DNA from: Mantamonas sphyraenae STR306
Taxonomy: Eukaryota; Protista; CRuMs
DNA: 64,000 bases
Reading direction: 5' to 3'
NCBI GenBank assembly: GCA_026936335.1
Contig: JAPMXV010000048.1
Coordinates: forward strand, 1 to 64,000
Below the pieces are notes generated by a model. It searched no databases and was not told where the DNA came from. It was given only the letters and a program-made list of their open reading frames with translations. Made by a program: the position numbers and the translations under genes. Of this stretch, positions 2,965 to 51,632 are shown in pieces (positions within the stretch are counted from its first letter, which is position 1; every line of letters begins with the position of its first letter).

Positions 2965-5900
2965 TGAATGGTGTAGAGCACGTCGTCCATGTGCTTTCTG
3001 TGCCTGCTTCGGCCTCGCAATCGGTAGCTTTGAGCAAGAACGAGCTCGCTGAGAAGGTGGCTGCACTATCAGGCACGCTGTCACGCGGTGAACCCATGTG
3101 CTTGGCGGGGTTCCGCATGCAGACCAGCCCGTTCGAGTTTGGGTGTCTCTGCCTCCTCTGGACTGCATCTCAGCGAGCGTGTCTGCGCCTTTTTCTGTTG
3201 CGCGGGCCTCTCCTCTTGAAGGAGGTCTCAGAGGACACGAGCATCGTATGGGTCGTCTATGCTGCGATCTTGCAGCGGAGAGGGATGTCGCTTTGTCTGT
3301 TGCGGTGGAGATTTTGCTGACGAGGTGTTCTCGAGATCCATTGTGGTCTGTTGTTGCGCGCTGAAGGCAGGACTCGATGTCCATGTGCGAGGTGCAGGTG
3401 TGATGTAGGTGAGATCACCTGCGAGCTGGAGCCACCTGATAATCTCGACCAGGAGGGTCTGCATGTCAGGGGGTAACTGGGTTCTCCGCGTCATTTGTCG
3501 TTGTTGTTTTGGACCAGCCGGCGCAGTGCAGGGATTGCAATCCACGTCTCTATATCCGCAGCATGGAAACTTGACTGTGTGTGGATGGTGTGGTGTGCTG
3601 GCGACCGATGACCAGAGCGAGTGGTGCAGGGTGGTGCGGTGGATCGGAAAATCATCCTACTAGATATCGGCATAGTCATTCCAGGGGTCTGTCGGCATGG
3701 GCGGATGCCTGTTTGTGGCCAGCAGTCCTGTTCTGTTGGATGCGTCGTGTTTGTGGACACGGAGGCGCTCTTGTTGCGCAGAAAAAGCTGGATCATCGAC
3801 GGGAGGAGTTTGTCGGTGACCGTGTCCCAGCGCTCGCGGCAGTCAATCAAATCGTCGTCGTCGTCCGAATAGGAAGGAGGGACCCAAGGGAAGGGGAGAT
3901 CTTTCAGGCGGGAACGGAGGGCACGGTAGTCTGCGGTGCAGCGAGAGTACTCACGATCAAAGAGAACCGAGCCGAGCTCCACCACGTGGCCTCGTACGGA
4001 AACAGCTTGGTTGCGTCGATGGTGTCTTTGCCTTCCAAAACGGACAAGTACTTGACTTCTCTGGGCACGCGAGTTTTGGAACGCGAACGGTTTGCGTTGT
4101 TTGACGCGCGGCTCTTTGTGAGTGCTTTGAGAGTGCTGTGGTCGATGAGGTTTGCAAAAACGTGCGGGAGGTTGATGATCTCCCATTCGTGGAGCACTGT
4201 CCCTTGCACGCGTGTGGAGGGCCAGGAGTCCTTGCGGAGTTGCTGCAGGTGATCCAAGGGTCCATTGGATTCTGTGTTGCCAGCGGAGCCATGGCGGTCT
4301 TCCTCGTCGGACGAGTCCTCACTGACCTGCGGATGGGGGGAAAGATTCTGCAGCCGCCAGTGCAAGAGCCAGGCAAGTTTGAGTGCGAAGCGTGGGTACA
4401 CGTAGTGGTTGCGCACAGTCCAGGCCCTCTTCATACGAGCACGCCATTGTCGTGGTTCCATGATGAGGACAGATTCTTTGGCTGTGTCATAGGTGAGCAG
4501 GGAAAGGCGTTCTGAGCCATCAGGGCGGCGTCGAGATTGGCTGCAACAGGGCAGGTGGCCGGACAGAAGGGTTGTTGGCCATCCACGCAAAGGCGCAGGG
4601 TGCTCGCTGTTGTTCAAAGAGGAGCTTGAAGCGCGACCCGATGGCTTTGGATCCCACAGAAGAAGGCCGGCGTCGCTGTCGAAGCAGTGGATCCAAAGGA
4701 GTGGGGCGACAGATGCTTGTGTGTTCGGTTGCCGTCGATGTCTTGTGCATGTTGCTGCTGAGATAGGCACGTGGCGACATCCAGGCGGTCGCCGCAAAGC
4801 GGTACACGGCATGTGCAGCCAACTTGGCGACTTGCTTCTTCTGAGCGATGTGGTGGACCCATGAAACATGTGATAGCTCGGGCAATCGGCACGCCGTGGT
4901 GGGGGCTGCTCGGTCCGATCGAATCAGGCACTGTACACAATAGTCTGAGGTGACACTGTAGCCGTTCATGGCTTTGACATTGTGTTCCCACGCGTCGTGC
5001 TGTCGTTCGAGCAAGCCAACCAAGGAGTTCCGCCAGGCCTTGCGCAGCACTGTTCGCTCGCAGTCGTTCGTGTTGGCGGCTGCAGCGTCCTGATCTTGCT
5101 GAAAAGCGTGTGCATGAAGTTCATGGGCACGATGTAGCTCAGTTTCCAACAGAATTTGGAGCGGTAGGGGGTAATCGTGGAAGGGTTCGATGGACTCGAG
5201 CTTGTCGAAAACGGGCACGAGGACGTGTTCTTCCACGTCTTTGTACCAAGCGCCAAGTTTGCACAGCGGGACTACACCCACAAATGCCAAGCACGTGAGT
5301 ATGGCCAATTCGTCCTCAGACGCGCTGTCGCTCCTCGCCTGGGAACGAATTTCATCCGCAAACTGGCGAGCCTTTGTCAGGTTCTCCTGGTGCTCAGCAG
5401 TCACCCGCTGGGCAAGCAGAGCCGCCTTGCAGAGGGTCTGTGGATTGGTGGTGGCAATCAGACTCGAGCGCATCGACGGGAACTCGCGAAACCGTGTTGC
5501 GTTGGCACCGTGTTTGGGGTCCATCCAGAAGCAGATTAGTGTCTCCACAATATCGACCCTCTCCTGACTGTTGTTCTCAAGAAACGTTTGACAGTATTTG
5601 TTGATGACACTCTCTGGCTCAGAGGTGAGTTTGCAGCTCGAACCATGAACCCACAGCGGCTCCTTTTTGTTGCCTCCACGCTGGTGTAAAAGCTCTTCAA
5701 TGGACGACATCCAGTTCTCTGCGAGCGCTTCCAGTGTCTCTCTTTCCTGCTCATTCTCTTTGTCCAGCGAGAGCAGCTTGGCCTGAACAAGGGTGGCTGC
5801 CTCCAGCTCCACGCTCATCAAACGTCGCTCGTCAACTTCCAAAGCCGGTGTGCTGTCAATGCGAACATCCGTGAGGTGGAATGCAGGTCGAATGATATTG

Positions 5901-6762
5901 CGATTCATACCTCCATAGTAGGTCCAGGAGTGGCACCCAGTGTGTTCCCAGAGCACTGTGAGCGGGATCAGCCCCGAGAAACTTGCATAGACCACCAAAT
6001 CCCACTGGGCTGAAGACATGTTTGATGTACACACATATGCACTGTTGACAAATTGCCTCAATTTCTCGTAGGAGGTAAGCAGGGGCTCGGGAGGCGGGAG
6101 GTCCAGTGATGCTGAGGCGGCCGCCCACACGAGCGCTTTCACTTGACCAGGGGTTACCTCGCCGCCTTGATACTGTTGAAAAGCGGCAACTAGGTTGCTC
6201 TTGGGGTGCTTAGCATTGGGTCCTAGGTGTGTGAGCTCGTTCTTGTTGATATCTTCGATCAGCTCCAAGGTGATGCTCTCGTATGTGTGCTTGTCAGGCA
6301 GCTGGTGCTTTGAAGGTGAAGCAGGGGCCTGTTGGTCACCATTGGGCTGCAAGTAGTGGCGACGGGCACAGGATGTCCACACATGCGCGCATTCGGTACG
6401 TGTGAGTGCATGACCTGGGCCGGGATGGAGGTTGCAAGAGGGGAAACCCACCGTGCCGTTTGGGTCTCGGAGCTGGAGCTGGAGCTGGAGCTCGAAGATG
6501 CAGATGGGGTAGACTCTACCCGGGACCGCTTAGGTGCGTGGTCAGTTACAGGGTCAATGCTCTGCGGCTCCTCTTCTTGCTCTTGTTCTTGGTCCCCGAG
6601 CCGGATGGGCACTTGCTGCGCAGCCACCTGGACGCCAAATCGGCCACCCCCCTTGCGTCGCTGGTGCTTGGCGGACCTCTTGCGTTTACGTGATGCTGCA
6701 GGTCTATCTCTACGATGTGTGGCTCCCCAAACATTGCCCTCCTGTTGCTCACTGTTCTCCAT
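2965..6762 (-). CDS. Large orphan protein (>1000 aa when frames are joined); NLS-like N-terminus, CxxHx4Hx6C motif, duplicated internal helical domain; 3' end uncertain
   Basis: Fragments 6259-6870, 4520-6451 and 3904-4869 correspond to one 972-aa ORF in the other arm (60631-63549); 3491-4186 and 3228-3545 appear to continue it. Likely start MENSEQQ at 6762. Confidence 0.6.
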
Positions 6763-6904
6763 GGAGCAGAACAAAGGGCGGCTTTGGTGGGTTCTGCGCA
6801 ACTTGCTTGGCCCCTTTGTCCTCTTGCTCAACGTAATCAACGTATCGACGACGGAGCCCACAGCGCCCACGACTTGTGTGGTTCACAAGGAGGTGTACAC
6901 CTTT

Positions 6905-7262
6905 CACCCAATCAAGGTGGTGGGCCTGGTTGGACCTCGCCCGGGACCACTCTCATCGTCGGGTTCGTGTCGTTTCGCTCACCGCTTTCGATATCAGTGA
7001 GTCCTGGACCAAGTCCTGGGAGGACAGTTCCGCACATGTACCAACACACTCTTTGGTCACACACACTGTGGATTGTGATTGGTTTTGCGATGAAGCCTGG
7101 GCCCGGACCAGGTCCGGACCCACTGGTCATCGTAAAATCGGGTGTATTTTGATTTTTTGGCTTTTCATTTCACCTCATCAATTCGTGTGACTGGAGGTTT
7201 CGATGAAGGTCCAGTCCGGACCAAGTCCGGGACCACGAAACAAACCACAAACAGGGACCATA
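6905..7262. promoter_or_regulatory. Cluster of palindromic CGATGA...GGACC/GGTCC...TCATCG boxes between divergent genes
   Basis: 7083-7137 reads TTTTGCGATGA-agcctgggcccggaccaggtccggacccactgg-TCATCGTAAAA (11-bp inverted arms, 1 mismatch). Related boxes at ~6925-6960, ~7000-7022 and ~7198-7240. Confidence 0.6.
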
Positions 7263-7465
7263 CATGGACTACTGGTTGACAGATGGATGTGTCGACCTGT
7301 GTGGGCATGGAGGAAGCTCTGAGGGGCGTGGGAGCATCACTGTGGCCCTGTCGGTCCAACTTGGTCTGCAGCTCGTGGTTGCCCCGTCTGAGGCAACTCA
7401 ACGCGATTGCACTTTGCACGTCACAGTAATCCGCTCGATCACTCACAAGACGCAAACAAGCAATC

Positions 7466-10092
7466 ATGGACATCGATATCCCGGAAATCGACCCTGTCGA
7501 TGAGAGTGTTGGTGACATTGTCCTGGCAGACGAAACGAGCCAGCCCGATGCAGGTTCACAGCCCCACGACGAAGAAGGGCGCAAACGTGCACGTTCAGCA
7601 AGTATTGAGGAGTCGTACCAGGAGGACGAGTGGATTTCGACAGTTGCAGCGGCACTGCCCCAGCCAAAGAAACAGGCTCGCATTGACCTTGGTACGTGCC
7701 CCCCAAACGTCCACACACGGTTCCAAATTACGTGGTTGGTAAAACATAAAACACCTCTACAACAATAACTAACCCCCACGGGCATGGCGCATGGACGAAG
7801 TAGACGCGAGCGCCGTTTCAGACTCGACGCAGCACCTGGATCAGCCTTGCTCGTCATCCGCATCGGCTGGAGATGTTTGCAGAGCAACAGAGAGGCCATT
7901 GAGCAGGGATCAGAGGGAGCTTGTCGATTTGATAGTGGCCGCGACGCGAAAGAAGGACGCGGTGGGGCTTGTGATTGAGGCAGTGCCGGGTGCGGGCAAG
8001 TCGACTGTGATCAGGGTTATTGTGAAGGAAGTCCTCAGAGAAGAGGGTGGAGAGAATCGGTGGACGACCGACCGAGCTCTGTATGTGCTGGTGTTCAACC
8101 GCGCCAACGCGAACGATTTGAAGGAGGCACTCGAGCGAGCTGGAGTCAAGGTGGCGGCAAAGCGGAGTGACGATGGTGTGCACGTGTGCACTTTCCATTC
8201 CAAGGCCATGAGCGATTTGGGCAGTCATGCAAAGGGAGCGGTGACGTTTGATTCGAGCTCTTCGAGCTCGGTTCTTCCGAGATACTTTGTGCAGGTACTG
8301 TGCAGAGCGAGCGCTGACATGCAACAGGGCATGAAGATCGACGATGAGCGCATTGACTCGTACCTATGCGAAAACGTGACCAAGCTTACGAACGAATTTG
8401 TCAAACGAGCCGACGCGTCCAAGGCAAGCACCAACAACCAGGAAATTCGGGACATGTGTCAGAGACACTACCAAAACATTGTAAAGTTTGCCAAGCCTGT
8501 GTTGACACAGTGCTGTCAGCAGTATGCGCCGCTGGTCAGGAGCGTCGAGCAAAAGGTGCTGCGAACGCTGGTTGAGTTCTACAGCCAGGCTTGCATGCAG
8601 ATGAACATTGGCAACGACAAGAGTGAAGTATACCACATGATCAACACGGAACGCAATCTGCGCACTCACTCTGGACTGGAAAAAAAGGCGCTTGGGGCAG
8701 AGTTTGAGCGGGGCGTGCTGACCGAGCTCGTGTGCCTGGTGCTGAAGCCAGCCGAGCTGTTTGCCAACAACATGACAAGCATTGTGTCAATGCCAGATGC
8801 GGTGTACGTGGCAAACATCACAGGCGCAGATTCCTTGCCGCAGAAGCACATGGTGGCCCCTCTGCTCATTGTGGACGAAGCACAGGACTGCACTCCCGCC
8901 ATGATCGAATTTGCCCGCCGCATGACGGAAAAGAAGGGCAGCATACTTGCAGTGTTTGGCGACAAGCGCCAGGCCATCAACCTGTCACTAGGAGCGGCAC
9001 CAACGGCGCTTGCCACTCTGAAAGAGGAAGCCTCGAACCAGGGGATGCGAACGAACACCCTGGAGCTGAAACTCACACGTCGCGTGTTTTCCAAGATGGC
9101 ACCAGTGCTGGAGACGTTGGGCACCCCAATCGAGTTTGACAAGGACGTCGTTGCGCAAGGTACGTTTGGGCCGCGCGAGGAGCTGCCCCGAGCGACCACG
9201 GCAGAAAACGATGACCTATTGATCGTACGCAACAACCAGGAGCAGTGTGTGTTGCTGGCTGTGTACGACCAATTCTTCCTTGCAGACAATCGCGGCCACG
9301 AGTACGCCCAAGTTTGCACTGAGCTCCAGTGTCGGTGGAGCAAACACGGGGGCTCAGAAGAACATACGAATGTGGAAGAGTGGCGATCTACCGCGCAGGG
9401 GTTCGTCGAACGCGAGTTGCAGGTGATGCTCGACCCGAAGAAGTTGCCGACACGGAGGGCGTTGGCCGCACAGCCGTGGTCGGTCGCTTCGACACTCGCC
9501 AGGACGTCCAGCAGTTCTTCAGGAGCATCAGAGGTGCGAACCGCAGGGTGTCGATGATGTTGCGAACTGTGGCTCTTGTGCGAGGGTGGCGGTACTTGCA
9601 GCGGGATGATCTCGTTCATGAGCAGGGGGTACACGAACTCCAGCAGCGCTTCAACGACTTTATGCACGCTCCAGCAGACGCCATGGATGGCAACGGACTC
9701 TTCAAGATCCAGATCTCGACGGTACACAAAGCTAAGGGGCCGATCGCGGGAATGTGCACATCCTCGGACTCGTTGACCTGTTTGCCAGCACGCAAGGTAA
9801 CGCGGACGAGTCGTTGAACCTCGTTTACGTTGCTTTGACTCGCTGCAAGCGTGGGTTGTTTCTCTACCCGTTGCTGGATGTCGACGAAACTGACGATGAA
9901 GACAAGCTCTGCGAGACGCTGAGCAAACAGACCAACGTGAGAATGTTGAAGGCCCTGGATTTACTCATGCAAGGATCCAAGGCGGTTGAAAACGAAGGCT
10001 ATATTGGGCCCACCACAAAGACGTTTGTGGCTGCACTCCGCAAGGCCATCTCTCACAGAGAAAAACAAAGCGCGGAGATGATTGTCGAATGA
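7466..10092 (+). CDS. UvrD/FBH1-like superfamily 1 DNA helicase; two exons (7466-7691, then from 7801 or 7804); two 1-bp frameshifts near 9432 and 9739
   Basis: Motifs AVPGAGKST (I), LVFNRANA (Ia), CTFHS, LIVDEAQD (II), FGDKRQAI (III), STVHKAKG (V), LVYVALTRCK (VI). Intron with GTACGT donor at 7692, ACTAAC branch point and phase-1-compatible AG at 7800 or 7803. Confidence 0.88.
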
Positions 10093-10192
10093 ACGTGCCT
10101 CTGCTCTAGTGTATTGTAGACGATGCCAAACACCGCATTGTGGCTCCATGGCTTCAGACACTGTGAGCCAGCCCATGAGCGTTCGACCAACT

Positions 10193-10549
10193 GGTTTTCA
10201 CGATGAAGCTCAGGTCCGGACCCCGGGTCATCGTCAGGAACCACCCAAGGTCGTGTGGCGAAAAAAAAAAGTTGTATATATATACCATCCTATGAATTTT
10301 TTTTTTTTTGGAGAGGTGGGGTGGTCTTGCCTCGGCTGGGTGAGAAGTGTGGTTTTCACGATGAAGCTCAGGTCCGGACCCCGGGTCATCGTCAGGAACC
10401 ACCCAAGGTCGTGTGGCGAAAAAAAAAAGTTGTATATATATACCATCCTATGTTTTTTTTTTTTGAGAGGTGGGGTCGGCTGGGTGAGAAGTGTGGTTTT
10501 CACGATGAAGCTCGAGTCCGGACCCCGGGTCATCGTCAGGAACCACCCA
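10193..10549. repeat. Tandem repeat (units start 10193, 10351, 10495) of a palindromic box plus A10/TATATA/T12 tract; candidate replication origin
   Basis: Unit: GGTTTTC-ACGATGA-agctca-GGTCCGGACC-ccggg-TCATCGT-caggaaccacccaaggtcgtgtggcg-A10-gtt-GTATATATATAC-catcctatg-(aa)T12. Confidence 0.9.
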
Positions 10550-10710
10550 TCGGTGAAGATGTCCAAGGTCATGTGAACAAAAACTGTCTGTATCGTATTG
10601 TTGTGGTGTTGTATTGTACTTTGGTAACGTTAAACCAATTGGTAGTCTCGCGAGCAGATGTGCCTCGCAATGCTCCAGCTGTGCCAAGATAACGTTGTGT
10701 AGTTCGCCAA

Positions 10711-11319
10711 ATGACCCATCAGTCAATTAAAGGTGATTCTGAAAACAAGTGCTCTGGTTCGATGCCGAGTGGTGCAATCGGTTCGTTGAACACACCAACG
10801 ATGAACGATGGCGATGATGACCACAACATTGTTGTCGATGACAACGATGCAGACTACCGCAGCGGGTACGAACTGGAAGAAGGAATAGATGATGAGGCCG
10901 AGGAAGATAGGGGTGAAACCATCAGTGGAGTAGGGGGGTACGGGTTCCGTTTTATTGATGACGAATTTGAGGAGGAGGAGATTATGGACTCGGAGGAGGA
11001 GGAGGAGATGAGGCAGTTTATTGCGGATGACGACGAGTTTTTGGAGTGCATTGAGCTTACAAGCAGTGACGAGGAGGACGAGAACCGTTGGACGAGTGAG
11101 GAAGATGAGGACGATCAGTGGTACTACAACGAGGGGTCTGATGAGGAGGACAACTACGGCTATGCCAACTGGAGTGACTTGGATGTGGATGTTGACGATT
11201 TAAACAGCTCATGCTACTCCGGAAGCGATGTGGACGACTCTGGAGATGACGATGACGAGATAATTCTCCCCCGCCGGCGCAACCGACGTTCCATCCCAGA
11301 CGATGAAGCAGAAGCATAA
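10711..11319 (+). CDS. Small highly acidic (D/E-rich) protein with basic C-terminal patch; true start may be 10801
   Basis: Acidic ORF containing FIDDEFEEEE and FIADDDE, ending PRRRNRRSIPDDEAEA. Identical in both arms. Confidence 0.75.
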   Translation: MTHQSIKGDSENKCSGSMPSGAIGSLNTPTMNDGDDDHNIVVDDNDADYRSGYELEEGIDDEAEEDRGETISGVGGYGFRFIDDEFEEEEIMDSEEEEEMRQFIADDDEFLECIELTSSDEEDENRWTSEEDEDDQWYYNEGSDEEDNYGYANWSDLDVDVDDLNSSCYSGSDVDDSGDDDDEIILPRRRNRRSIPDDEAEA

Positions 11320-11442
11320 AAAGAAGGTGGGCTTTATAATTTCCTTGTTCTTGACACAGTGATGCTAAACAGTACGGGCACCAGCTCGCAAAAGTCAGCC
11401 TAGCTGGCGTATGTGTGTGTGTGATGAGTTGGTACCTCCTGG

Positions 11443-11490
11443 TTGATGAAGCAGCGTGCAGGACCAGGTCCGGACACCAGCGGCATCGGT
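11443..11490. promoter_or_regulatory. Degenerate copy of the palindromic box upstream of the UL9-like gene (mirror at ~56010-56058)
   Basis: TTGATGAAGC-agcgtgca-GGACCAGGTCCGGAC-accagcgg-CATCG. Confidence 0.5.
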
Positions 11491-11573
11491 TGGAGCACTC
11501 GATAGGCGAGTATGTTTTCCTGTTCGTGATGCGCCGTCACCCCCAACCAATCAAGATTTCGCTCAGTGGGGAT

Positions 11574-14500
11574 ATGCAGGGGTCTGACAGCCGGTCTGAA
11601 GCCAAGAATGAGGCTACAGTCGATGGCATGGAGCTGGAAACTGACACTGGACTGCCGTCGGCCGAGAGCACCCTCGCTGTGCACAACCATCCGGCCACAC
11701 AAGTGGAGCCTGTGAGGGGTAGCAACGAGCCTGTGAGGGGTAGCAACGAGGCTGTGAATGAGATTGTAGTCGATGTAGACAACACTACAGTCAAAGTTGG
11801 GATTGGGGAAGACGCTGAAGAGCCGTCGAGCACAGCGCAAAGAAAAGGCAAGGGTAAACTCGGCACGGGCTTTGGTATGTTCGAACGCAGGTACAGGAAA
11901 AGAGGTGGCCCCGTGTACGTACAAATCGGCGAAGAGACGGCGCGCATGGGTATTGGCAACATGGAGTACCCCGGGTACTGTGAGAAAATGCTGCGATGGT
12001 ACCAGGAGCATGCAGCGGAGAACGTCGTGCCTCTGGCTGAGGCCACGTATGCCCAAGACATGGATCACAAACTGGTAGTTCACTTCCGGTATGATGGCGA
12101 TGAAGAGAACGACGGCGTTTACGTGACGCATACCAAGAAAGTGGTGCTCGAGTTTCTCCAAAAGCTGGTCGGCGAATACGAGGACGAGGACATCGAGTTC
12201 ATGAGCGTTATGTACACCATCATGGTCCGTCGCTCTGCTGACAAAGACGATCCATCTGTGTGCGTCCAGCTGGTTGTGGATTTGCGTGTGGATCGGGACA
12301 CCGCAGAGCGCACGCTGGGGATCCTGAAGGAAATTGAGAAGAAGCTAGGTGGCGTCATGGTGTGCTCTGAAATGCTTCTTCCCGAACGACACTCACCTTC
12401 CATGTGTGGCTTGAACAGCGACCACCCTGTGACTGTCCTTCAGAGATTCAAGGGGACAGTGCAGCAAAAGGCTTGGAACAAGTCGGTGCGGAAATTGGTG
12501 ATGAGCGAGGATTACAGCAAGCTACTGACAGCGTACAGTTCCACCAGTGCTCTGTGGCCGTACACCATGCAAGCTGAACAAACGTGTCCTCCTGTGCTGG
12601 CAAACTGGCTGCTGCACAGGCTCGACACGTCCGACGAGCAGAGCACAATGTCCCTGGACAAGTACGTGTCCACGTTTCTCACCCAGCATGCTCAACACGA
12701 AGGTTTGCGCTATTTGGGGAGGATCTTGGAGGAGACTGCGCGTCTGATACCAACTCGCCTTCCGAGCGACTCTTGCAACACTCAGACAGCCACAGACACG
12801 ATGAACACAGACGAAAGCGGAGCTTTTGACAAGACCTGGGAGGAAGCAGATGTACAGGTGCGCCGCTCGGCGTTTGGCAACGGTGCGGTGCGGCTAATCA
12901 TCACCGACCAAGAGGAGCGGACACAAATCCGCGTCACCTCTCTCTCGTTTGCCAAAGGTGTACGTGTATGTACGGAAAGACGAAAACTGGGCTGTGTGTG
13001 GAGGGAATCCTCGGCACAAGGTGTCCCAGGTACCAAAGTCGCCCGATCTGTGCAACTTGGACCTGGACACGCTGCTTGTGCTCATGAGCGCCATCCTGTA
13101 CAACATACAATCACAGCCCGCCCGAACGATGGCGTCGGACTTGGAGAAAGAAAGGGCTGAGAAGGATTGGCTGGATGGTCTCAAGGAGAAGATCCATCAG
13201 CAGGATGTGTTTGTCCATGCCGGTCGCGCAGACGACAAGGAGGTGTGGGCCAAAATCTCGCAAGACATGGATCATCTGCGCCGTGACTACGAAGGGCAGG
13301 ACGATATCGAGATTGAGGATGCAGAAGGCAATTTGCCGATGCTTGTTTATTTTGTGTGCGCACCAACGGCTCTGGGTAAGTCGCTTCTCCTCGCCCGTCT
13401 GCACTCCGATTACCTTATGCATGCCACAGATGGAGACGACAAAGAATCGGCCTTTTTGCAGTCCTCGCTGAGCATCATCTACCGGACTGCCTTGCTGCCA
13501 AGCCTGATGGACAACCTCCCGGGCGTCGTCTCGTACGATGACATCCGCAACGGCAAGCGCAGAAAGGAAGATGTGCAACACGTCGTCTCAACAATGGAGA
13601 GCATGCTGCGCCATGTGTACCACGAAAACATGGAGCCTGAGTTTGTCAATCTCGACGAGATCGCGCGGCTACCGAGCAAGCTCCTGGAACAAACGTTGGC
13701 ACACAACGCACCGGTTAATGCGACCCTCGGCTGTATTTTGCGCACATTCATCACAGCCAAGATGCTGTACTTTGCCTCGGCGGAGTTGACGCCGGAGACG
13801 GTGTCGTTTGGGGTTTCCACCATCCGCAGGCTGGTTCCCAACCGCAATCTGCGTTTCCGTGTCATCGTAGTCGGACGAGAAAAAGCCACGTGGCATGGAC
13901 GTGGTCATCCACCGCTCACAGGAGACGTTTCTGCAGCGCATGATCGCCGAATGGCAGCACCGTCCACAGGCTGACCTGGAGTTTCTCCGCGACTACCGCA
14001 TCTTCTCTGCAGTGGATGACCTTGAACGCTGCTGCGAGCTCTACACCGAAAACCAAGCCGCTGTGACAGACCGCAAACCCACCGTGTACTTGGTAAAGGG
14101 CAAGGGAGTGGACAAAACGGAACAGGACCGGAGCGTCCGCAACCTGAACGCCATGAGCAAGAGTACATTCAAGCGGATTCCGCTGACCGATTTTCACAAG
14201 GCACAAAGCGAGAGAAAGCAAGGGCTTTTCCGCAATATGGCCAGGAGCCAATCGGCAAAAGGTTGCGCAGATCACGACGCGACGTTTGTGACGAGCAAAA
14301 TCGTTGAAGGAGTGAGCGTCGAGCCCACGGCGTTCGATTCATTCTCTTTTCTGCGGAAACCCGACTTAACATCACCCATGATGGTTGTGCAGATGGTAAA
14401 CCGTGTGCGAAACGTCCCGAACGATGTGAACGAGGCGTTCTTGCGCTCGCAGATGAACTTGGTCTCCGTCGGACGGCACAAAGATTACGTCGCGAATCTG

Positions 14501-15080
14501 GAGCTTCTTTTCAAGCACAAAAAGGACTTTGACCAGTACGCCAAGCGTCAGCATGCCAAGGATAGGTTGAGCAACAAGAGACTGTTTGGAAGTCCCCATA
14601 ACGCCCAGCGGGACATGCACATGGGATCCTCAGACCCGTGCGATGTAGCATTCATGGTAGAGTTGCTGGCGAAATGGAGCGCAGCAGAAAGCTCTTCGTT
14701 TGATGCTCAGCAACTTGAGCGAGGCCTAGCGCACAACGGGCAGAACGTGTACTATTTCGACGCCCCAATCCCCCTGAGGGACACAGATGTTGATGGTCAT
14801 GCTCGCATCGTCCTGGAACCATACGAAAGCAACGTCCATGTCTGGACTGTGGACGGTGAAGTCACCCTACCCCAGCTACCAGTGTACGACGTCAACGTGC
14901 CGTACGGGCCGTCAAACTCGCAGGACGAGTTGAACGCCACAGATCGACCTTCCAAGCGTGATCGAAGCGATGAAGACGCCCGAGGGGTGAGTTTGATGAC
15001 AACGAGAACCCCGTCGCAAAACACCAGCGGGTTGAGAAGGATCAGGGGGAGCCAGACAGCAGTGAGGAGTTCAATGACCT

Positions 15081-15116
<36 letters not shown>

Positions 15117-16449
15117 CAGTAGCAGTAGCAGCTCGGGACACAAGCTCGACACAACATCAGATCTGTGGCGCTTGTACGTATCCACCGTCAAGCTTCGGTG
15201 CCAACGATATACACCGCCCACTTCAAAAGCGGAAAACAATGTACGGTGGTACGAGAAAAGGCGCCGCGGGGTCCAGCGGTTGGAGAAGGTCAACGAGAAG
15301 CTCCTGCGCCAGGTCGCGCAAAAGGTGGAGGAGTATCGTACCAACGACAAGTCAGAGGAGAAGTACAAGGAAGAATTGCAAAAGAACATGAAAACAGCCG
15401 AAGAAGGGGATGATGAGTACAGCGGACCGCAACCGGACATGGTGGACTTGTACTGCGGGATGTCACCTGCAGAACAACTGGGTATCTGGGAAGCGATCCC
15501 CTACCGTGAGTTCGTGGCTTTGTTGGACTCTCCCAAGGAGCACTTATCATCCAGTGGCTGGTATTCAATCCAAGACAACCGTTGCAAACGCCTTCAGAAC
15601 CTTGCCCTTCTGACATGCTCACAGAAAACGCTTCAATCTGCAGAGAAACTGAGCAGGAGAACTGTCAGGGAGACCTCGAAGCACACAAATGCGCTCACGT
15701 CGCGCACAAACACGTCACCACCGCACTATAGCGACGACAAGGAAGTTCTGGACCGCATTCTGGGTTTTCTGGGAATACCAACAACCGACGAGCTCCGGCA
15801 ACTGGAGAAGGCGCCGGAAGACATTGTGTTATGTGCGTACAACACACCGAACACGAACGACGACGATCACGACGACGACGACGACGACGACGACGACTCG
15901 ACGGACAGGCAAGTGGTCTCGGCAGAAACCCTGGCCGAGATCCGTGACGTTGTCAACACACATGTTGACTCGGCCTCAGATGGCTGCTTGCTGGCCACCA
16001 AGAAGGTGGACAAAGAATTCACACTGTCTGCTGTGAAAACACTTCTATCGAAAGCTGGTGTGCCCATCATGAAGAGATCGAAGAAAGATGGTGACGGTGC
16101 ACAGCCAAAATACGCCACGTACATACTGGCAGGTAAGCAACTGTTCGGCTGGGCCCAAGCGGCCAAGAATCTGCGGCGCCACTGGAAATGCACGCAGCAG
16201 GACAATAGTCAGTATTCCTCTGGCCGGGGAGAGGCGAGCGCCCAAGGTCAATGTCCGTGTAGCTTCCACGAGCTGGACCTTGCCAAGAAGTTTCGCCGCG
16301 GTGCGCACAGGTCAAACGATATCTACCTGGAAAATCCAACCGCCGACGATGAAACACAAGTGTGGAGTGAGAAGCAGCAGGCACAACTGGATAGGCAGCA
16401 GCACATGAGTTCGAGCAACTTGACAGGCTTTGAAATGATAGAGACATGA
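11574..16449 (+). CDS. UL9-like origin-binding SF2 helicase protein (left copy; frameshifts near 12940, 13880 and 14985)
   Basis: Four ORF fragments (581, 341, 498, 425 aa) that correspond to the single 1678-aa ORF in the right arm. Confidence 0.75.
11706..11758 (+). repeat. 21-bp coding tandem repeat (EPVRGSN x2 plus partial)
   Basis: gagcctgtgaggggtagcaac repeated twice, then gaggctgtga. Confidence 0.85.
15081..15132 (+). repeat. (AGC/AGT)n microsatellite encoding poly-Ser in the UL9-like protein (mirror ~52368-52420)
   Basis: cagcagcagc...agtagcagtagc. Confidence 0.9.
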
Positions 16450-16593
16450 GCCCAGCGCCTTGATTGGAGCGCTCGACGAACCCGCACCGTAGTCAAGGAG
16501 CAGCAGCAACCACAATAACAAAACATAAAGAATCTTTCGCAACCGCTTGCTTTTTGTTGGATACCGTCAGGTGTGCAGTCGCTGTCCCACATC

Positions 16594-17961
16594 TCACTGC
16601 AGCAAATGAAGGAGACAGAGCCAAGTGAGGAGGAGCAGGATCAAATGAACATGGTTGTGAGTTGCGTCGCTGGAAGTGGGTGCTGCCGTTGGAGTTGGGG
16701 TTGGGGTCGAGCTGTCCGGTGTGGGCGACGACGGCTCACTCTTGCCAACCACCGAGAGCGAGCAGTACCGGGTCGACGTGCTCGCATCCATGGTAAAGCC
16801 AAACACCACGATGGAGTCACCTGCAAGTGTCATGCCAGACACGTAGTGGTCTGGAGCCCAGGTTTTCCACCACTGGAACGAGCCGGTCGCGTCGTACCGC
16901 AGCACGGCCGAGATGGGCGTGGTTGTCGTGCCCTGCAGATACCAGGTTGCGTAGTACACTCCCGTGGAATCTACATCGACCATTGCAGGTCGGGGGAACT
17001 GGTTGTCGATCGACGCATTGGTACGATGCCAGTTCAGTGTTCCAGCAAAATCTGTTTGGTACAGCGTGGCGCGCCACCCAGAGTTCTCGGCCTTGTAGGC
17101 GACAGTGTACAGCTTGCTAGACGCACTGTCTACAGCGATGCTCTGGGCGTCGTAGTCTACCATCGTTGCCCCTCCTGTGGGCGAAGACGAAGGGTAGGCC
17201 ACGCTCTGGAGCACACCTGCAGACGACACTCGTGCCACAAACATCCGCGTCGCAAATCCAGACGGTTTCGGGTACCCTGGTATGTTGGTGGATGCACCGC
17301 CCGCTGCAAAGATGTCTCCAGAGCTCGCATCGACGCCCACCTCGCGCACTTGGTCTTTGCTGTCGCCACTTCCAAACACCGTGGTCCACTTTACCGTGCC
17401 GTTCGACGCACGCCGTTGCACATACATCGTTACCGTGTTGGCTGTTGTGTTGGCGATGTGTCCAACCAGAACCAGGTCTGACGCTCCCCACGAAGCCATG
17501 CGCAGCCCACTCTGGCTCATGTCCGAATCCGCCATCTTCCACACCACCGTGCCGTTGGGCATGACGCGACTGAGTTCTGTCTGCCCGCTCGTCAGGGATG
17601 GGTTGGTGGAGATGCGACCAAGCACAAACACAGAGCCGTCCTGCAGCACCACGTCTGACCCGAATGACCGGAAGCGAACGCTCCACTCCGTCGTGCCGTT
17701 CAGGGCCATCTTGGCCAGGAAGCCGCGCGCAACTCCTGGTCCCGAGTATGAAAGCTGGTTGGCAAGCGTGGTGTATGCTGTGTCTACAACATACAGCGCC
17801 TGCGCACTGGCGTCCCAACGCACGCCCGAGCGTGTCACCGGAGACGAAGCAAGCCCAGAAAAGTGGTCGTTGCACCCGGGAAAGGTGTACGTCTGTACAG
17901 CCAGTGTGGGTGTCGCACACAGAAGCGTAATGGTCAAGATGAGAAGGAAGAAACGCGGCAT
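16594..17961 (-). CDS. Secreted beta-propeller (SBBP-like) surface protein with P/T/S stalk and hydrophobic C-terminus (GPI-like)
   Basis: Signal peptide MPRFFLLILTITLLCATPTLA. Repeats such as NGTVKWTTVFGSGDSKDQVREVGVDASSGDIFAAG. PTPTPT stalk and LILLLLTWLCLLHLLQ tail. Confidence 0.8.
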   Translation of the reverse strand: MPRFFLLILTITLLCATPTLAVQTYTFPGCNDHFSGLASSPVTRSGVRWDASAQALYVVDTAYTTLANQLSYSGPGVARGFLAKMALNGTTEWSVRFRSFGSDVVLQDGSVFVLGRISTNPSLTSGQTELSRVMPNGTVVWKMADSDMSQSGLRMASWGASDLVLVGHIANTTANTVTMYVQRRASNGTVKWTTVFGSGDSKDQVREVGVDASSGDIFAAGGASTNIPGYPKPSGFATRMFVARVSSAGVLQSVAYPSSSPTGGATMVDYDAQSIAVDSASSKLYTVAYKAENSGWRATLYQTDFAGTLNWHRTNASIDNQFPRPAMVDVDSTGVYYATWYLQGTTTTPISAVLRYDATGSFQWWKTWAPDHYVSGMTLAGDSIVVFGFTMDASTSTRYCSLSVVGKSEPSSPTPDSSTPTPTPTAAPTSSDATHNHVHLILLLLTWLCLLHLLQ

Positions 17962-19246
17962 CGCGGACGGGGTGGTTTTTTCGTGCTTGAAATTGCTGCG
18001 AGTTGCGCACGAGTCGTTCACGTCGCTTTCTACCCCTCTGACAGGGTGGCAATCGCCTCTTTGTTCCGTCCGTAGGTGCATGCTCTGCATGGTTGTGTTG
18101 GACATCCGTCTGTGGCCCTGTGTCCGGCTTGTCACGCAGTCGCAGGAGAAGCGGCTTGGTGTCAGGGCTTGCGCGGGTTTTGCCCTCCCAGGTCGCGTTG
18201 GAAGCCTGTTGCGCGGCGTTTCTGACCCGAAGATCGGTTAGAGGTTGGATCGAACACCTACAAGCAGCTTTCAGGTGTCACAGGTGTCTCTGATGGCCTA
18301 CGGTGGAGCTTGGCAAGGTAGGGTCAATCTCCGACCAGTGCGATCTGGATGTGCAGGGTGCATCAGGCAAGATCCGCTGTGGCCGACTCCTTGGCTGCTC
18401 TTCCATGCCTGGTGTGAACTCTATTGGAGCGCACAGTTGTTAGCATTGGGAGCAGAGTTGGAGTCGACCGATCGATTCACGGTAGACGTGGTCCAATCGA
18501 GCCATGCGCAGTCCGGGTCGCGTTTGCTCATCTCAGGTTTCTCGTTTCGCCACCACCTCAGCTGTGCGGTCTACTTCAAGAAATGGTATGGACAGCATTG
18601 GCTCCACAGGCGCCGGAGGTTGGTGCGTGAGGACCAACTTCGCCCAGTCGGCTCTTCTGGTGCAGGAGGCTCACCCATCCAAAGAACGATCCTTGGGATC
18701 TCCCAAACCCATGGGTTGCTTCATACAGACGGTGGTATGGACCGTGACCATTTGAGGGACAGGCTCGGTGGGCACGTTTGATTGCCGTTGTGCAAAAGGG
18801 AATCTGACCAGGCTGGGATGGTGTGAGGATGTCGCTTTGCTCTGCCCACCGAAAACCGTGCAATGCAGAAGCTACAACTGTCGTTGCACCCACAGCAAAG
18901 TGAGATCCATCTGGAGAGGGTATCCAAAGCAAGGGCACAGCCGACACACGATGACGAATCACTTGCCGAAACAACCCCTCCAAGGAGCCCAGACAGCACT
19001 TTGAGAGTCGCAGACAACGGCTGCACTGTGCTCACAATCATTCTATCACTCCAGTCACTCCTGGTGTTACTCCAGGTCACACATTCTGCGCACAGCTTGG
19101 AGGTGGATATTGTACGATATTGCGCGATTTTGTACAAACCCATCCTTCTTGGGATACTCTCGTTTTCTCGTTTTGCGTATACCGACTGGATATCTCAGAG
19201 GACGAGGGATCAAAGTGGACAGGGTAAGCAACGATTTTACGTGTCT

Positions 19247-20669
19247 TTACCACGTGCCTTGCATGTGGGCAAGCGCCGCAGAGGCCATCAGCATGACGAG
19301 CAGCGCACCGGCCGTTGGGCCACTCGCATTCTGGGACGAAGCGCTCGCACTGGGAGAGGTTGTGGCTGTGGGCGTCGGGGTCGGTGTGGCAGATGCACCA
19401 GGAGTCGGAGATGCGGACGGACTGGGACTGGGCGCATACTCAGTCGTAAACATGTCGCTTTTGCCAGCGCTCTGGAATCCAACTGCAATGAACTGATCCA
19501 CCTTGCCTGTCACCATCAGCGCCCCGTCGGACAGGAATCGAGTGTTGTAAGGAGTCGGTGTAGTGTCCCATCGGGATGCCAAGATCACGGTCCCGTTGGG
19601 ATCCATCTCGATCAGCGCGCGTTTGAAGGGAAGGTTGTTGTCTGGGATGGTTCCTGCATAGTACAGCTTGCCATGGTGGGCAACCAGGTTAGTGTCTGCT
19701 TGGATGACCCCGTTCACTTGAGTGGATGACACAAACGTGCCATTCGTGTGGTGGCGCATCAACAAGGGTTTGGACACGGGACTGCCCTGGTTGCCAATCG
19801 TGTACAACAGACCATCCGAGAGAAGCACCATGCCTCTGGGAAGTACAGGTGTCGTGTAGTTGCTCTGCCACACCCACTCGCGGTTGCCTTGCGGGTCAAG
19901 CTTCATCAGAAAGCCGTGGTTGGCGTTGCTGTACGTTCTGTTCTGGTTCGTGATGTCTCCGCTGGTGCGTCCGCCTACGTAGATTGCGTTGTTGATGATC
20001 TCCATCGTCCACACGCTCTCACTCTGGCTGTTGCCCATGTAGGGGGTGCTGTAGAACTGCCTGGACCACAGGATCTCCCCGTTCTGGTCCAGTTTTCACC
20101 ACCAACACGTCTTGCAGGTTAGGATTGCCACTTGTCATGTTCATGAACGAACCAAACACGCTGCCAGCAACGTAGATGTTGCCCGAGGCGTCCATCGCTG
20201 CGACGTCTGCGTAGTCCGTTGCTTCGACTCCGAACTGCTTGTTCCACAGAATGGTGCCCGTCGGAGAGAGCTTGCTCACCACCAAGTCTCGATCGCCTTT
20301 TAGCGTGAAGCCAGGCAAGGAGCCTCGTGTTTGGCCAAACACATACAGGTTGTCTTGCGAATCTACCACTGCACTGACGAGCTCATCTTCTCTGTCAGTG
20401 CCCCACTGCCTGCTCCACACACGTGTCCCGTTACGGAACATGCGTGTCACGTAAAAGTCGGCGTCGCCAGCATTTGTGTAGCCATCCAGGCTGCTTTTGG
20501 TCCAGCCCGAGATGAACACGCTTCCGTCGCTTGCTTCGTTCACACAACGAGCGTAGTCGTCCTCAGGTCCGCCCCATTGAGCGTTTGTCACTGTCTGACG
20601 GGATGGTCCAGCAAGTAGGATGAGAGTCGCTGCCAGAGACACGATAGAGAGTAGAGATGCCTTGGTCAT
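19247..20669 (-). CDS. SBBP-repeat beta-propeller surface protein 2 (left copy, 1-bp frameshift near 20093)
   Basis: Split ORFs 20019-20744 and 19247-20038 equal the intact 46830-48251. Confidence 0.8.
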
Positions 20670-21684
20670 CGTGCGCGGTGTGTTTTGAAAATTGCCCAAC
20701 CCGGCGCACTGAGGCCAATCAACATGCATGTGGATACATGGCATAGTATGCAGTGATCTGGTATTCTCTCACCGATAACCACGTTGGACCGTCGCTGTGG
20801 CCACAGCGCTGTGGTCTTTCGATCCCGTCAAGCTGGTTTTACCCTCTTTCCAGGTTGGCGTATGCTCGTTCTGCACTGTTAAACACGCTGGGAGTGGTTG
20901 ATATCTCCATTTGGTCTCCTAGCAGACGGTTCGAAGAGTCAGCCAGTACAGAGCGAGAGGTTGACCCGGTGTTGTTCACCAAATGCTCCCAAGCGGCGTT
21001 GCAACTTGGTGACGCATCCGAGACGGATATCCATCGGTGCAAACACTTCCAGCAACGTCGTTTCTGCACCTACACACTATTGAACCTGTGAGCTGGCTGG
21101 CTTCACAATTTCTGCTGCTGCGTGCATTCGAATCTCTGCCAGCGGGCTGGACACACTAAACACAGGCCGGAGTGAGGTGAGTGGTGAGTTTCCCATCACA
21201 ACACGCATCGGCCGAGTACATGTCAACGGAGAAGGTGCGGTTGCGGAACACCATGCAATGTGGTCCCAAAGTGTTGCTGGTGACGTGGGCGCTTCATTTT
21301 TTGAGGTCGGGAAATTGGTCACCCCAAAGGGTGACTGTCGCTACGGGTGGCTTCAACGCAGACATCTCGCCATATGTTTGGTGTTTGATGGCTCCGATGG
21401 AACCGGTGAGTTGTGCTGTAGTTCTTGTTGCGTTTCTCAGGTGTGTCGTTCCTCGCACACGATCAGCCCACTGTGCTCTCATGGCATGTGCTTTCTATGG
21501 ATTGAGAGGGTGAGCACAGCCCATACAAGGCAGAATCACCATCGAAAACGGGGTTTGGGTGTGGCCATTTCTTCCTCCAAATCAATGGGTGGGCAGACTC
21601 GTGCATTTGGATAAAATCGTAGAATTGTGTTCAAACACCACGAGGAACACCTTTCGAAAGAAACTTCGTCAGCCATGCTGCCGA

Positions 21685-22602
21685 TCATGGGTCCTTGGAC
21701 ACTGAGATGGATTCGTGCGCACTCTGTGTACACTCTTGGACCAGCTCATCCCACAGACTCATCACCAGGTTGATGTGCAGCGTGTACGCCGTTGACTTCT
21801 GCACAGCCTCCGTGTGCGTCAGCGCAATGTTTACCACTTCCTGCAGAACCTGTGTGTCCACAAACTCTATCTTGGCCAGATGTGTCGCCATCACACGACC
21901 CAGTTGATCCGAGGCGACCACAATTCCAACCGACACCACCTCCTGCAGAAGAGCACGCATCAGATCGATTGCCGACGTCCCTTCATGCACTGTGATCGCG
22001 GTAGACAGGGACACAGCCAGCCATCCTTGCAGCGTTTCATCCACCGTTGGCGTCACGACAACCTCCACATCCATCGTGTCGAGGCTGGACGTTTCGGCTG
22101 CCACGCAAAGTGTGTCCGATACACCTTCCCATGTGCACGGGCGCGGTGCGTTGCTTCGAGCAAAAGCCGCCATCTCCTGGAGAAGAAGCCCTGCGCCGTC
22201 TTGGTTGGCTTGCGTGATGGCGCCAAAATCGAGGATGCGTCTGACGAACGACTTTACGCGTTCACGCGGCTCTGTGTGGCTCCACACCATCTCTCGTTCA
22301 GGTGAGATAGTCCAAGTATGTCGTGAGCGAGACGCAAACGTGCAATGGAATGCAGGAGGGCGTGGTACCACGGTGTACATGTGGTTCATGAGCTCCTCCC
22401 GTGTTTCCTCATCCACTCCCGGATTGCTCAGGTACTCCACCAGGTGCTCCATCTGGTCATCCAGGATGAACTGAAAGATGGGTTCATCCTGCACACGCGA
22501 GCGCTTGAGAGGCTGTCTTTCCTGGGCGTGTGCGGACGGCTGATCTTGCGTTGCTTCTGCATCGTCCAGGTCGCGCTTGCCGTGTGAGCCTTGCCGCGAC
22601 AT
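21685..22602 (-). CDS. Orphan protein (~305 aa) with NLS-like PLKRSRVQ; possible further 3' exons
   Basis: Protein-like ORF identical in both arms; likely start MSRQGSHG. Confidence 0.6.
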   Translation of the reverse strand: MSRQGSHGKRDLDDAEATQDQPSAHAQERQPLKRSRVQDEPIFQFILDDQMEHLVEYLSNPGVDEETREELMNHMYTVVPRPPAFHCTFASRSRHTWTISPEREMVWSHTEPRERVKSFVRRILDFGAITQANQDGAGLLLQEMAAFARSNAPRPCTWEGVSDTLCVAAETSSLDTMDVEVVVTPTVDETLQGWLAVSLSTAITVHEGTSAIDLMRALLQEVVSVGIVVASDQLGRVMATHLAKIEFVDTQVLQEVVNIALTHTEAVQKSTAYTLHINLVMSLWDELVQECTQSAHESISVSKDP

Positions 22603-22651
22603 CTTGAAATACCACCGTTGTTGTGTTGCATGCACAAGCGCTGCTGGTCCC

Positions 22652-24266
22652 TCACCTGTCGCTCGTCATTGTGTGAAGATGTGCTGTGGTCCGTGTGGTC
22701 GAGTGAACTTCCAGTTCCCACACCCTGCGTGAGCCCACCGTGTCGTGTGGGGAGCCAAGATCCGAGTAAAAATGGCACTGTGGCGTGAGGCTGTGTACCA
22801 CCAGACACACAATCCCCTTGTACGTCAGGCCCATTGCTGCCGTGACGACTTGGGTGTAGTTGACACGTCCTTTGGGTGCGTGTGCACACACGAGGTACAT
22901 CGTTGGGGCGGCAATGGCGGTTGATGTCTCAGATTCCTTCAGAAGCTCGGCGGCGGTGGAGAGTACGCAGCAGTGCCCCTCATACCGCTTGGTGAGGAAG
23001 CAGGCCAGCGATTCAAACAAACGAACGTGTGTTTTGGAACTCACCACCAGCAATCGCTTGGCCATGCGGCTTTCGTACAATGCAGCCAGTTGAAGTGTCA
23101 CGTAGGATCCCAAGCGAGTCAGGTGGACCTGCTCCAGCCGTTGAGTGTGAGGGGCGTCCCCGATGTCCTGTTCGCCAGACGTGTCGCCCTCGCAGTAGTC
23201 CCAGGTCAACTCTTCGCCAGCAGCGATGTCGCGCTGTGTCACTAGCCACCCTTCGCCGTCCTGCTCGATCATCGCGCAGTTGGGGGCTGCGCTGCTGTTC
23301 AGGAACGGAGCCAAACCCGGAACTGGACGGACCACATCGCCGCTCTCTCTCAATGTGAGCAGCAGCAGCGGTTTGTCTTGGTTCTTTGATACTTGTTCAT
23401 CATCGTCCAGCGCAGCCACCTGCTCGTCGGACAACACGTGCCCTCGGTACGGCATCAGCGTTGTCCCTTGGACGAGTGCGTGTGCTGCCAACACATGCAG
23501 TCCCTTTGTTCGTGTGTAGGCCAGTGCCAGGTGTTTCCTCACCGACTGGCACACACCCAACCACGTCGTGTCGCTGTCGTCCTCACTGCACTGTGCGGTG
23601 CGGAGCGGGACAATTGTTGGCTCTTCCAGCAGGCCCAGCACCTGCGTCTGGCACGTAAACACATCCACCCCTTCTTCACGTAGAGCGTCATACACAATTC
23701 TGAGTCGGAGGGTGATTTGACGGGCACGGGCGGCTCCCACACGGTCTTGCAACCAGGCTAGAAACCAAGTCAACGCGGCAGGCGAGGCCAAGCAGGGAAA
23801 CGGAGCCAGTCTGACGCCTCCGTACACCCAACACGCCCACAAACATCTCTGCTGCAGACTTGCTGGATAGTAAAGGGATAGAGTGGGTCGCAGAGAGCCG
23901 AGCAAGGTCATCGTGGGTGTCGAGGAGGGTGGCAAGTGCTGCAGTTGTGTTGGACACGCGCGACCATGCGAAACGTGCAAGGTGGCTGCACACTGCGTCT
24001 ATGCTCAGGTGTCCATGCACAGCGAGGGTCACCAACGACGTCACAAGGTGTCCGACATACAAGGTGCCTGCCAAGAACTCGCGCTTTTGGTACGCGCGCG
24101 CGCGGAGTGAGTTCACACCACGCGTCAGCTCGGGTAGGTACTCGACACGCTGCCGTTTGATGGCAGGTGAGGTAGGAGTAGATGTCGACCCCCTGCGGCG
24201 TTTGGCATGGGACATGAGTTGGCGGATGAGGCGCACAGTGCTACTTGCTACTTGGGAGGGCGACAT
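22652..24266 (-). CDS. SET-domain protein (left copy, 1-bp frameshift near 23838)
   Basis: Split ORFs 23688-24368 and 22652-23980 equal the intact 571-aa ORF in the right arm. Confidence 0.75.
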
Positions 24267-39821: not shown

Positions 39822-39993
39822 CGACTCGACCCGGAAGACACCTTCAATGAACAATCCGAGACATACCAAAAGTGTACAGCCAACACCTCAGGTGCACAGC
39901 GACGGTAGTCCAGACCCATGGCACAACCACATCCTCCAGGCGCTGGACGACGATGCATAAGAATAGACAGGCATGTCTGCAAAATCATATTCC

Positions 39994-44849: not shown

Positions 44850-44898
44850 GGGACCAGCAGCGCTTGTGCATGCAACACAACAACGGTGGTATTTCAAG

Positions 44899-51600: not shown

Positions 51601-51632
<32 letters not shown>

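Follow-up and report, generated by a model that had tools for sequence, protein, structure and literature searches.

Why does one palindromic motif recur at three places among the replication genes of a protist contig? The window, a 64,000-nucleotide stretch of Mantamonas sphyraenae STR306 (contig JAPMXV010000048.1), had been read once from its letters, and that sequence-only reading proposed an element-specific operator or, alternatively, recombination or resolution sites. We asked whether the motif is real, what surrounds it, and which function fits it best.

Architecture and distribution of the motif

The motif is built from 22-bp half-sites, CGATGAAG-N4-RGTCCGGACC, in which the spacing is constant while the middle varies, and which stand as inverted pairs at three sites. 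In the 39,991-bp non-redundant part of the window the composite motif occurs five times, against none in 200 dinucleotide shuffles, and all six exact occurrences of GTCCGGAC fall within the three sites (shuffle mean 0.87, maximum 4). Half-sites scoring at least 14/18 in these 40 kb likewise all lie there (8/8; background maximum 13/18), a gap that is partly circular because the consensus was built from the very copies later scored. Leave-one-site-out PWMs recovered sites 1 and 2 above background; copy E, the third site, scored 13.1–14.6 bits with its own site excluded from training, against a best background score of 14.9. Across six independent half-sites, the per-column majority is shared by 4–6 of the six in the blocks and by 2–4 in the 4-nt middle. 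We conclude that the motif is real. The copies lie at the three intergenic places where they were first reported, and the motif, which the sequence-only reading did not notice near cargo or spacer genes, is indeed absent near the other genes (no half-site of at least 14/18 near them within the window). Half-sites of this quality precede four genes, which encode an orphan protein, a UvrD helicase, an acidic protein and a UL9-like helicase, and every site lies about 90–500 bp 5' of an ATG. Distances between copies, 7.0–15.05 helical turns, follow no consistent phasing.

Site 1 lies where the orphan and UvrD genes diverge. Copy A (7088..7132) is a full 45-bp site in which inverted 22-bp half-sites (17/18 and 16/18) flank a single A; the 11-bp inverted arms first ascribed to this best copy are present, with a match of 10/11. 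Copy B (7201..7235, plus strand) has a perfect left half-site (18/18) and a degenerate right half (9/18) whose arm is lost, and a T-rich 60-bp stretch (7124..7183, GC 0.33) separates the two. Copies D (6915..6958; 10/18 and 9/18, TCATCG right arm kept) and F (6989..7025; 11/18) are only suggestive because they score below the background maximum.

Site 2 is a tandem array (10192..10549, plus strand) of 158 bp, 144 bp and a partial unit, with one compact site per unit. In copies C1, C2 and C3 (10201, 10359 and 10503) the paired half-sites share one GGTCCGGACC core, and A10, TATATATATA and T12–13 tracts lie between them. The three copies reported for 10193–10549 are thus present, but the 158/144-bp repeat takes in their flanks too, and they therefore count as one independent site. 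The depth of a 56-bp array contig (605.8, against 264 for the arm) fits 2–3 copies rather than a collapsed long array.

Site 3, copy E (11444..11488), retains the complete 45-bp geometry with degenerate half-sites (14/18 and 15/18) and is an operator candidate. It had been placed upstream of the UL9-like gene, and it lies 86 bp 5' of that gene's ATG 11574; however, it falls inside the longest open frame, in codons that follow the ATG at 11424, and would be upstream only with a translation start at ATG 11529 or 11574.

Base composition sets site 2 apart. The tandem array holds the two most AT-rich 60-bp intervals of the 40 kb and all four A/T homopolymers of at least 8 nt; the intervals ranked third to fifth abut motif copies, the fifth tied with the UvrD intron. 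Over 40-bp intervals the minimum GC is 0.175 at site 2, 0.275 at site 1 and 0.325 at site 3, and control intergenic regions match sites 1 and 3 but are clearly less AT-rich than site 2. Third-position skew across the region shows no clear switch. The array at 10192..10549 is the best candidate for a replication origin.

Elsewhere, three viral and seven metagenome loci matched the motif pattern. We treated them as chance because each is a single match in DNA of 55–70% GC, inside an open frame of 88–862 codons, and tblastn detected no resemblance to the module proteins.

The gene module and its inverted duplication

The orphan gene (3956..6762, minus strand, ATG at 6762) has its left end inferred from the intact right-arm copy (60631–63549, plus strand, a 972-codon frame), and its protein returned no family and no homologue in Pfam, ESM Atlas and homologue searches. 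The UvrD/Rep-like SF1 helicase gene (7466..10092, plus strand) matches PF00580 (E 6e-15), UvrD_C and phrog_1967 (E 1.8e-30). Its 5' exon (7466–7691) joins in frame across a GT..AG intron, a joint present in contigs of run X4, and its main frame is intact in the right arm (57407–59710, minus strand); a homologue search found no related locus. A D/E-rich ORF of 202 aa (10711..11319, plus strand) with a basic C-terminal patch has no family match. The UL9-like SF2 helicase gene (11424..16449, plus strand) is frameshifted in the left-arm assembly and intact as a 1678-codon frame at 51049–56085 (minus strand).

We predict that this 1678-codon protein is a UL9-like SF2 helicase and a candidate initiator. 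The call is drawn from language-model features: Herpes_ori_bp occurs in 53% of the members of the best ESM Atlas cluster (0.98). Helicase-like motifs were read by eye at aa 649–998. The protein has no Herpes_ori_bp match in Pfam, no PDB match at E<=10 and no phmmer match among 1.84 billion representatives, and a homologue search with aa 600–1130 was empty. Single-sequence AF2 models (pLDDT 34 and 39) were too low to use, and a fold search gave a best Z of 4.0, so that an AEP domain is possible at most. The UL9 system has an RVKNL recognition motif in a C-terminal DNA-binding domain; the RVKNL-like RLQNL at aa 1392 is a weak candidate for it because the orphan protein has the word too (2 matches in 7,384 aa). 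A tblastn search detected no relatives of the module among phages and plasmids; one candidate among viral contigs passed tblastn, and no related locus was found there. Pfam detected no capsid, polymerase or ICP8 family in the 38 ORFs of the visible 40 kb, several of which are unassigned, and the outer ends of the element lie beyond the window.

The module sits in an inverted duplication of at least 24 kb that the sequence-only reading had overlooked. The left arm (3516..27510, plus strand) is 99.8% identical to 39992–64000 and probably reaches farther left than 3516, since contig depth stays level as far as position 1. The unique centre (27511..39991) carries host-type genes at half the arm depth. 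The right arm (39992..64000, minus strand) holds mirror copies of every motif site (56025; 56977–57285; 60279–60389), with cores at 56025, 56977, 57121, 57278, 60279 and 60382. Contig depth confirms the duplication, the arms having about twice the depth of the centre (2.04 and 1.92 in runs X1 and X2). The centre in turn exceeds other contigs 2.40- and 2.46-fold in the same runs, relative to a baseline of few partly matching contigs that are possibly haplotigs or another organism. All four runs come from one study and possibly from the window's own source.

Run X4, recorded as 'DNA?', is the only one with GT..AG joints. Its deep contigs end short of the motif sites, at 6776, 7412, 10106 and 11590, which hints, weakly, that the main transcripts do not include the motifs.

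Candidate functions of the three sites

We see an even chance that the motif represents iterated sites for the element's UL9-like initiator, with putative binding and firing, that form a candidate origin and autoregulatory operators. A dimeric protein would read the two blocks, CGATGA and GTCCGGACC, in every half-site. Inverted boxes flanking the A/T tracts at C1–C3, and perhaps at A/B, would permit melting, as at herpesvirus oriS; the UvrD-like helicase would extend the unwinding and host polymerases would copy the DNA. Occupancy of A, B and E would repress the module promoters and set a low copy number, and autonomous replication would account for the roughly 2.4-fold excess of the arm–centre–arm unit. 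The sequence-only reading is partly supported: its element-specific operator, or a protein-binding site, fits the fixed two-block spacing, the variable middle, the inverted pairing and the restriction to the four-gene module. An origin, which that reading lacked, is favoured by the tandem site, rich in A and T, and by the UL9-like gene next to it.

A wider and more tentative proposal is that the arm–centre–arm unit could be a palindromic nuclear episome of the protist (at least 70 kb) that has no capsid and replicates itself, carrying host-type genes and using herpes-style origins that its UL9-like initiator recognises. The depth excess of about 2.4-fold comes from two runs of one study, and integrated tandem amplification may explain it too.

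The sites could instead be purely transcriptional cis-elements, which we regard as possible if rather doubtful: a shared upstream site would co-regulate the four module genes without any origin function, bound by an element-encoded protein (e.g. the orphan protein) or by a host transcription factor. All four genes have motif copies 5' of an ATG, and a plain promoter element explains this placement equally well. Poly(dA:dT) and TATA tracts are usual in promoters, and the A/T tracts would then be nucleosome-free promoter DNA. However, the richest site, with three copies and the A/T tracts, precedes only the small acidic ORF; at 45 bp, a palindrome of two blocks exceeds the typical transcription-factor site; and the unit is over-represented and codes for a predicted origin-binding helicase. 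Even as promoter elements only, the sites would make up a regulon motif of unusual clarity, in an element without known relatives.

It is unlikely that the copies lack a function and are left over from a small hairpin repeat or MITE-like element that was copied within the locality. C1–C3 are a plain tandem duplication and copies D, F and B have decayed, as such an origin would predict, but the three sites have the same blocks at exact spacing and share neither middle nor flanks. Among the matches listed, the only further X1 contigs at the motif sites were pieces of the array itself, a comparison that short degenerate copies would escape.

Structured RNA or single-stranded DNA hairpins (an ncRNA, a terminator or a nicking hairpin) are similarly improbable. 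Copy A does form a plus-strand hairpin with a 3-nt loop (z -5.4), and outer-arm mismatches are mostly G–T compatible on that strand, a bias we ascribe to the T-rich left flank. However, C1 and E fold like shuffles (z -0.64 and -0.14), B and C3 reach z -2.1 and -1.7, and only copy A is far better than shuffles, so the copies do not share a conserved RNA fold. Rfam gave four weak matches, all far below the gathering score, and ARAGORN no tRNA. Hammerhead, hairpin-ribozyme, SECIS, C/D-box and tRNA-like candidates, judged by eye against their consensus, were dropped without support from Rfam or ARAGORN. A bacterial promoter/terminator scan stayed at chance level, its model being irrelevant to a eukaryote.

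Site-specific recombination or resolution, the other half of the original proposal, is the least probable reading: the 45-bp palindromic geometry and the rearranged, inverted-duplication context suit it, but tyrosine and serine recombinases have crossover spacers of 6–8 bp and 2 bp and protelomerases leave a hairpin end at the axis, whereas the centre is 1 bp long in the full sites A and E and missing in C; Pfam and PHROGs detected no recombinase or protelomerase family in the 38 ORFs, several of which encode orphan proteins; no joint among those listed in four runs falls at a motif, and contigs run through site 1; and the duplication breakpoints are without motif (best 10–11/18).

Comparison with known systems

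In the literature searched, no UL9-like helicase from outside the herpesviruses has a defined target sequence, and none underlies a protist episome. The 22-bp half-site beside the UL9-like gene is a directly testable candidate initiator–origin pair; if true, no origin of a non-herpes UL9-like protein would have been defined in sequence before it, as far as the literature searched shows. The episome, if true, would found a nuclear plasmid family new to eukaryotes, and an autonomous palindromic unit with host genes would widen the nuclear plasmid list and offer a natural protist vector.

Plasmid iterons, SV40 T-antigen sites, EBV oriP/Qp and baculovirus hrs are iterated initiator sites that act as origin and operator. 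The element resembles them in its dispersed imperfect palindromes, adjacent AT-rich DNA and a copy before the initiator gene; the initiator class and sequence differ, and function here is predicted. Junction spacers in ODIRA are short, and the 12.5-kb unique centre far exceeds them; the putative origin would, moreover, be element-specific. What is alike between the element and origin-dependent inverted-repeat amplification (PMC4689423, PMC10766183) is an inverted duplication holding a candidate origin.

Yeast 2-micron and Dictyostelium Ddp are named, in PMC11962162, as the only two characterised families of eukaryotic nuclear plasmids. The element is like them in being possibly extrachromosomal, multicopy and capsid-less, with inverted repeats; it differs in its far larger size (at least 64 kb seen), its roughly 2.4-fold excess, host-type genes and helicases, and its episomal state is putative.

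UL9-like helicases occur well beyond herpesviruses, and SmDNAV codes for a UL9-like primase-helicase as well as an SF1 helicase, according to bioRxiv 10.64898/2026.08.29.747986. As in SmDNAV, mimivirus R8, ASFV F1055L and mriyaviruses, the protein here is large, with its predicted SF2 helicase after a long N-terminal region, and the element that encodes it has an SF1 helicase as well. Unlike in those elements, the SF1 helicase is UvrD-type, not Pif1-like, no virion genes were detected, and an AEP domain is hypothetical here.

The last comparison is with alphaherpesvirus oriS/oriL and UL9. The element differs in its intron-bearing genes and host-type cargo, and its visible 40 kb gave no match to a capsid, polymerase or ICP8 family. 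The 8-bp herpes box GTTCGCAC is unrelated in sequence to the 22-bp two-block half-site, and HSV Boxes 1, 2 and 3 have no exact match at the three sites (47–50 one-mismatch matches over the 40 kb). In HSV oriS the boxes are inverted about an AT-rich spacer, and a box hairpin closes with a 3-nt loop (PMC12543377); here the C1–C2–C3 palindromes flank the A10/TATATATATA/T12–13 tracts and copy A matches the hairpin. Both systems also have several redundant sites, origin copies (here candidates) in inverted repeats and a gene for an SF2 UL9-like initiator, predicted in this element.

A half-site repeated at three places

The palindromic motif copies described in the sequence-only reading are present at the places named, and their repeat unit is a 22-bp half-site, CGATGAAG-N4-RGTCCGGACC. 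In copies A (7088-7132) and E (11444-11488), two half-sites are inverted about a single A (22+1+22). Copy A shares the first site with copy B (7201-7235), which has a perfect left half and no intact right half, and with two decayed copies, D (6915-6958) and F (6989-7025), indistinguishable from background level. At the second site (10192-10549), the halves of copies C1-C3 overlap on a shared GGTCCGGACC core, with a spacer of 4 nt on the left and 3 nt on the right; E is the third site. C1-C3 form a single tandem repeat (158/144 bp) whose spacers contain A10, TATATATATA and T12-13, along with the two most AT-rich 60-bp windows of the 40 kb and all four of its A/T homopolymers of at least 8 nt. 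With 40-bp windows, this site alone stands clear of control intergenic regions in AT-richness.

The composite GATGAAG..GTCCGGAC..[T/G]CATCG occurs five times in the non-redundant 39,991 bp and in none of 200 dinucleotide shuffles, and a looser two-part pattern six times against at most one per shuffle, figures that overstate significance because the pattern was picked after viewing the copies. Among perfect 8-bp palindromes, GTCCGGAC is the commonest, and its six copies all lie at the three sites, as do all eight half-sites matching at least 14 of 18 positions (background tops out at 13). Leave-one-site-out PWMs retrieved the first and second sites above all background; the third was not retrieved (13.1-14.6 bits vs. 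14.9 for background).

Across six independent halves, both blocks are conserved in 4-6 of six and the four middle positions in just 2-4. Measured against shuffles, a markedly stronger fold is seen in copy A alone (z -5.4; C1 -0.64, E -0.14), and an Rfam search gave no match near threshold. What is conserved is sequence and spacing, not fold; we therefore infer a putative duplex-DNA protein site.

Genes bracketed by the motif sites

The sites bracket four genes: an orphan on the minus strand (3956-6762, ATG at 6762), a UvrD/Rep-like helicase (7466-10092, +; 5' exon at 7466, in-frame joint; PF00580, E 6e-15), a 202-aa acidic ORF (10711-11319, +) and a 1678-codon protein (11424-16449, +, frameshifted in this arm; intact frame at 51049-56085, -). 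For residues 600-1130 of the last, the best Atlas hits were Herpes_ori_bp clusters (0.98; family on 53% of members), and SF2-like motifs were spotted by eye. This makes a predicted UL9-like protein a strong lead, short of membership because alignment-based searches found no relative of it (nor of the orphan) and structure prediction gave no usable result. Its RLQNL word is not unique to it. Searches with the UvrD/Rep-like protein found no close relative. The orphan's coding-strand GC skew is negative at fourfold sites (-0.27, n=476) and positive in 11 of 12 other frames tested.

Elsewhere, a SET-domain protein (43134-44849, +; 22652-24368, -) has an N-terminal region matching no family. Short words of the hhxxGhh type, present both in this protein and in the orphan, bear by eye a faint likeness to tyrosine-recombinase box I, for which Pfam gave no hit. 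Two secreted-looking, beta-propeller-like arm cargo genes (16594-18135 and 19247-20744, -) show an SBBP match in one and a weak M11 match in the other. A 2483-codon gene with Cys-rich C-terminal repeats (28280-35731, -) contains a recent 956-bp internal duplication (97%); the gene has the highest depth in one public run, X4. In X4, two 68-nt GT..AG introns precede a 704-codon orphan ORF (24654-27508, +), so its protein exceeds the ORF length.

Inverted duplication and depth

The window is eukaryotic in look (NPC1, SET and LRR domains; GT..AG joints). Within it, 3516-27510 and 39992-64000 form an inverted duplication of 24 kb or more (99.8% identical) on either side of a 12.5-kb unique centre. 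The arms differ for the most part by single-base indels, and intact reading frames lie in the right arm. Depth values come from the contigs of four public runs, all belonging to a single study and possibly the window's own source. Arm depth was 264 in run X1 and 190 in run X2; the centre lies at about half of this (arm/centre ratio 2.04 and 1.92), which shows that the duplication did not arise in assembly. Partly matching contigs of other loci had depths near 46-56 (X1) and 37-41 (X2). Relative to this baseline, which may include haplotigs or other organisms, the centre is 2.40-fold (X1) and 2.46-fold (X2) deeper, and the unit as a whole exceeds other contigs ~2.4x. This baseline was built from six X1 and five X2 values and omits 33.6, 34.5, 69.2 and 91.1 (X1), 43.1 and 50.3 (X2), summed multi-contig values and a doubled internal repeat at 28.8-29.4 kb. 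Since one arm-depth contig reaches 2,158 bp beyond the window's left edge, the arm-centre-arm unit is probably at least 70 kb.

The inner breakpoint (27501-27510, 39992-40000) falls among the final codons of the 704-codon orphan ORF, whose 3' end differs between arms; in one of them the frame runs on into what may be a GTAAG splice donor. At ~27852-28014 lies a short repeat of very high copy number, with a bin depth of 8,335 in X1 and numerous divergent loose ends; it is probably a host SINE/MITE-like element. An error-rich assembly stretch (2760-4100), with many indels against all four runs, may hide a gene.

Candidate origins, operators and known systems

By analogy with HSV OBP and other UL9-like helicases, we propose that the element's own predicted UL9-like protein would read the half-site and that a replication origin would lie at the AT-rich tandem site. 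Copies preceding module genes would act as autoregulatory operators, most of all E, in front of the candidate initiator's own gene. Iteron plasmids, SV40 and EBV are known to combine origin and operator roles in this way, and such a combination would suit a copy excess that is low and alike in X1 and X2. The main rival, a purely transcriptional role, accounts for the motif positions equally well; we consider it rather unlikely. Recombination sites, also suggested by the sequence-only reading, are disfavoured: the full sites have a centre of only 1 bp, Pfam and PHROGs searches found no recognisable recombinase family, the duplication breakpoints lack the motif, and no joint falls at the boxes among the contig joints listed.

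A bolder interpretation of the initiator-origin proposal, that the element is a palindromic nuclear episome which replicates itself from herpes-style origins, is tentative and on balance doubtful. The accessible part of one source names 2-micron and Ddp alone as characterised eukaryotic nuclear plasmids (PMC11962162). We found no description of the element or motif in the literature covered, which mostly excluded subscription journals. Ten motif matches in viral and metagenome contigs, each single, were treated as chance.

As far as the accessible part of PMC12543377 describes it, HSV OBP is an SF2 helicase binding inverted boxes that flank an AT-rich spacer, the box hairpin has a 3-nt loop, and origins are redundant, two sitting in inverted repeats. 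The HSV box sequences have no exact match at the motif sites. A UL9-like primase-helicase and an SF1 helicase are encoded by SmDNAV, and UL9-like primase-helicases occur in other nucleocytoviricots too, according to the part available of bioRxiv 10.64898/2026.08.29.747986. We would rate the motif as comparable to known iterated initiator sites, in an element without known relatives.
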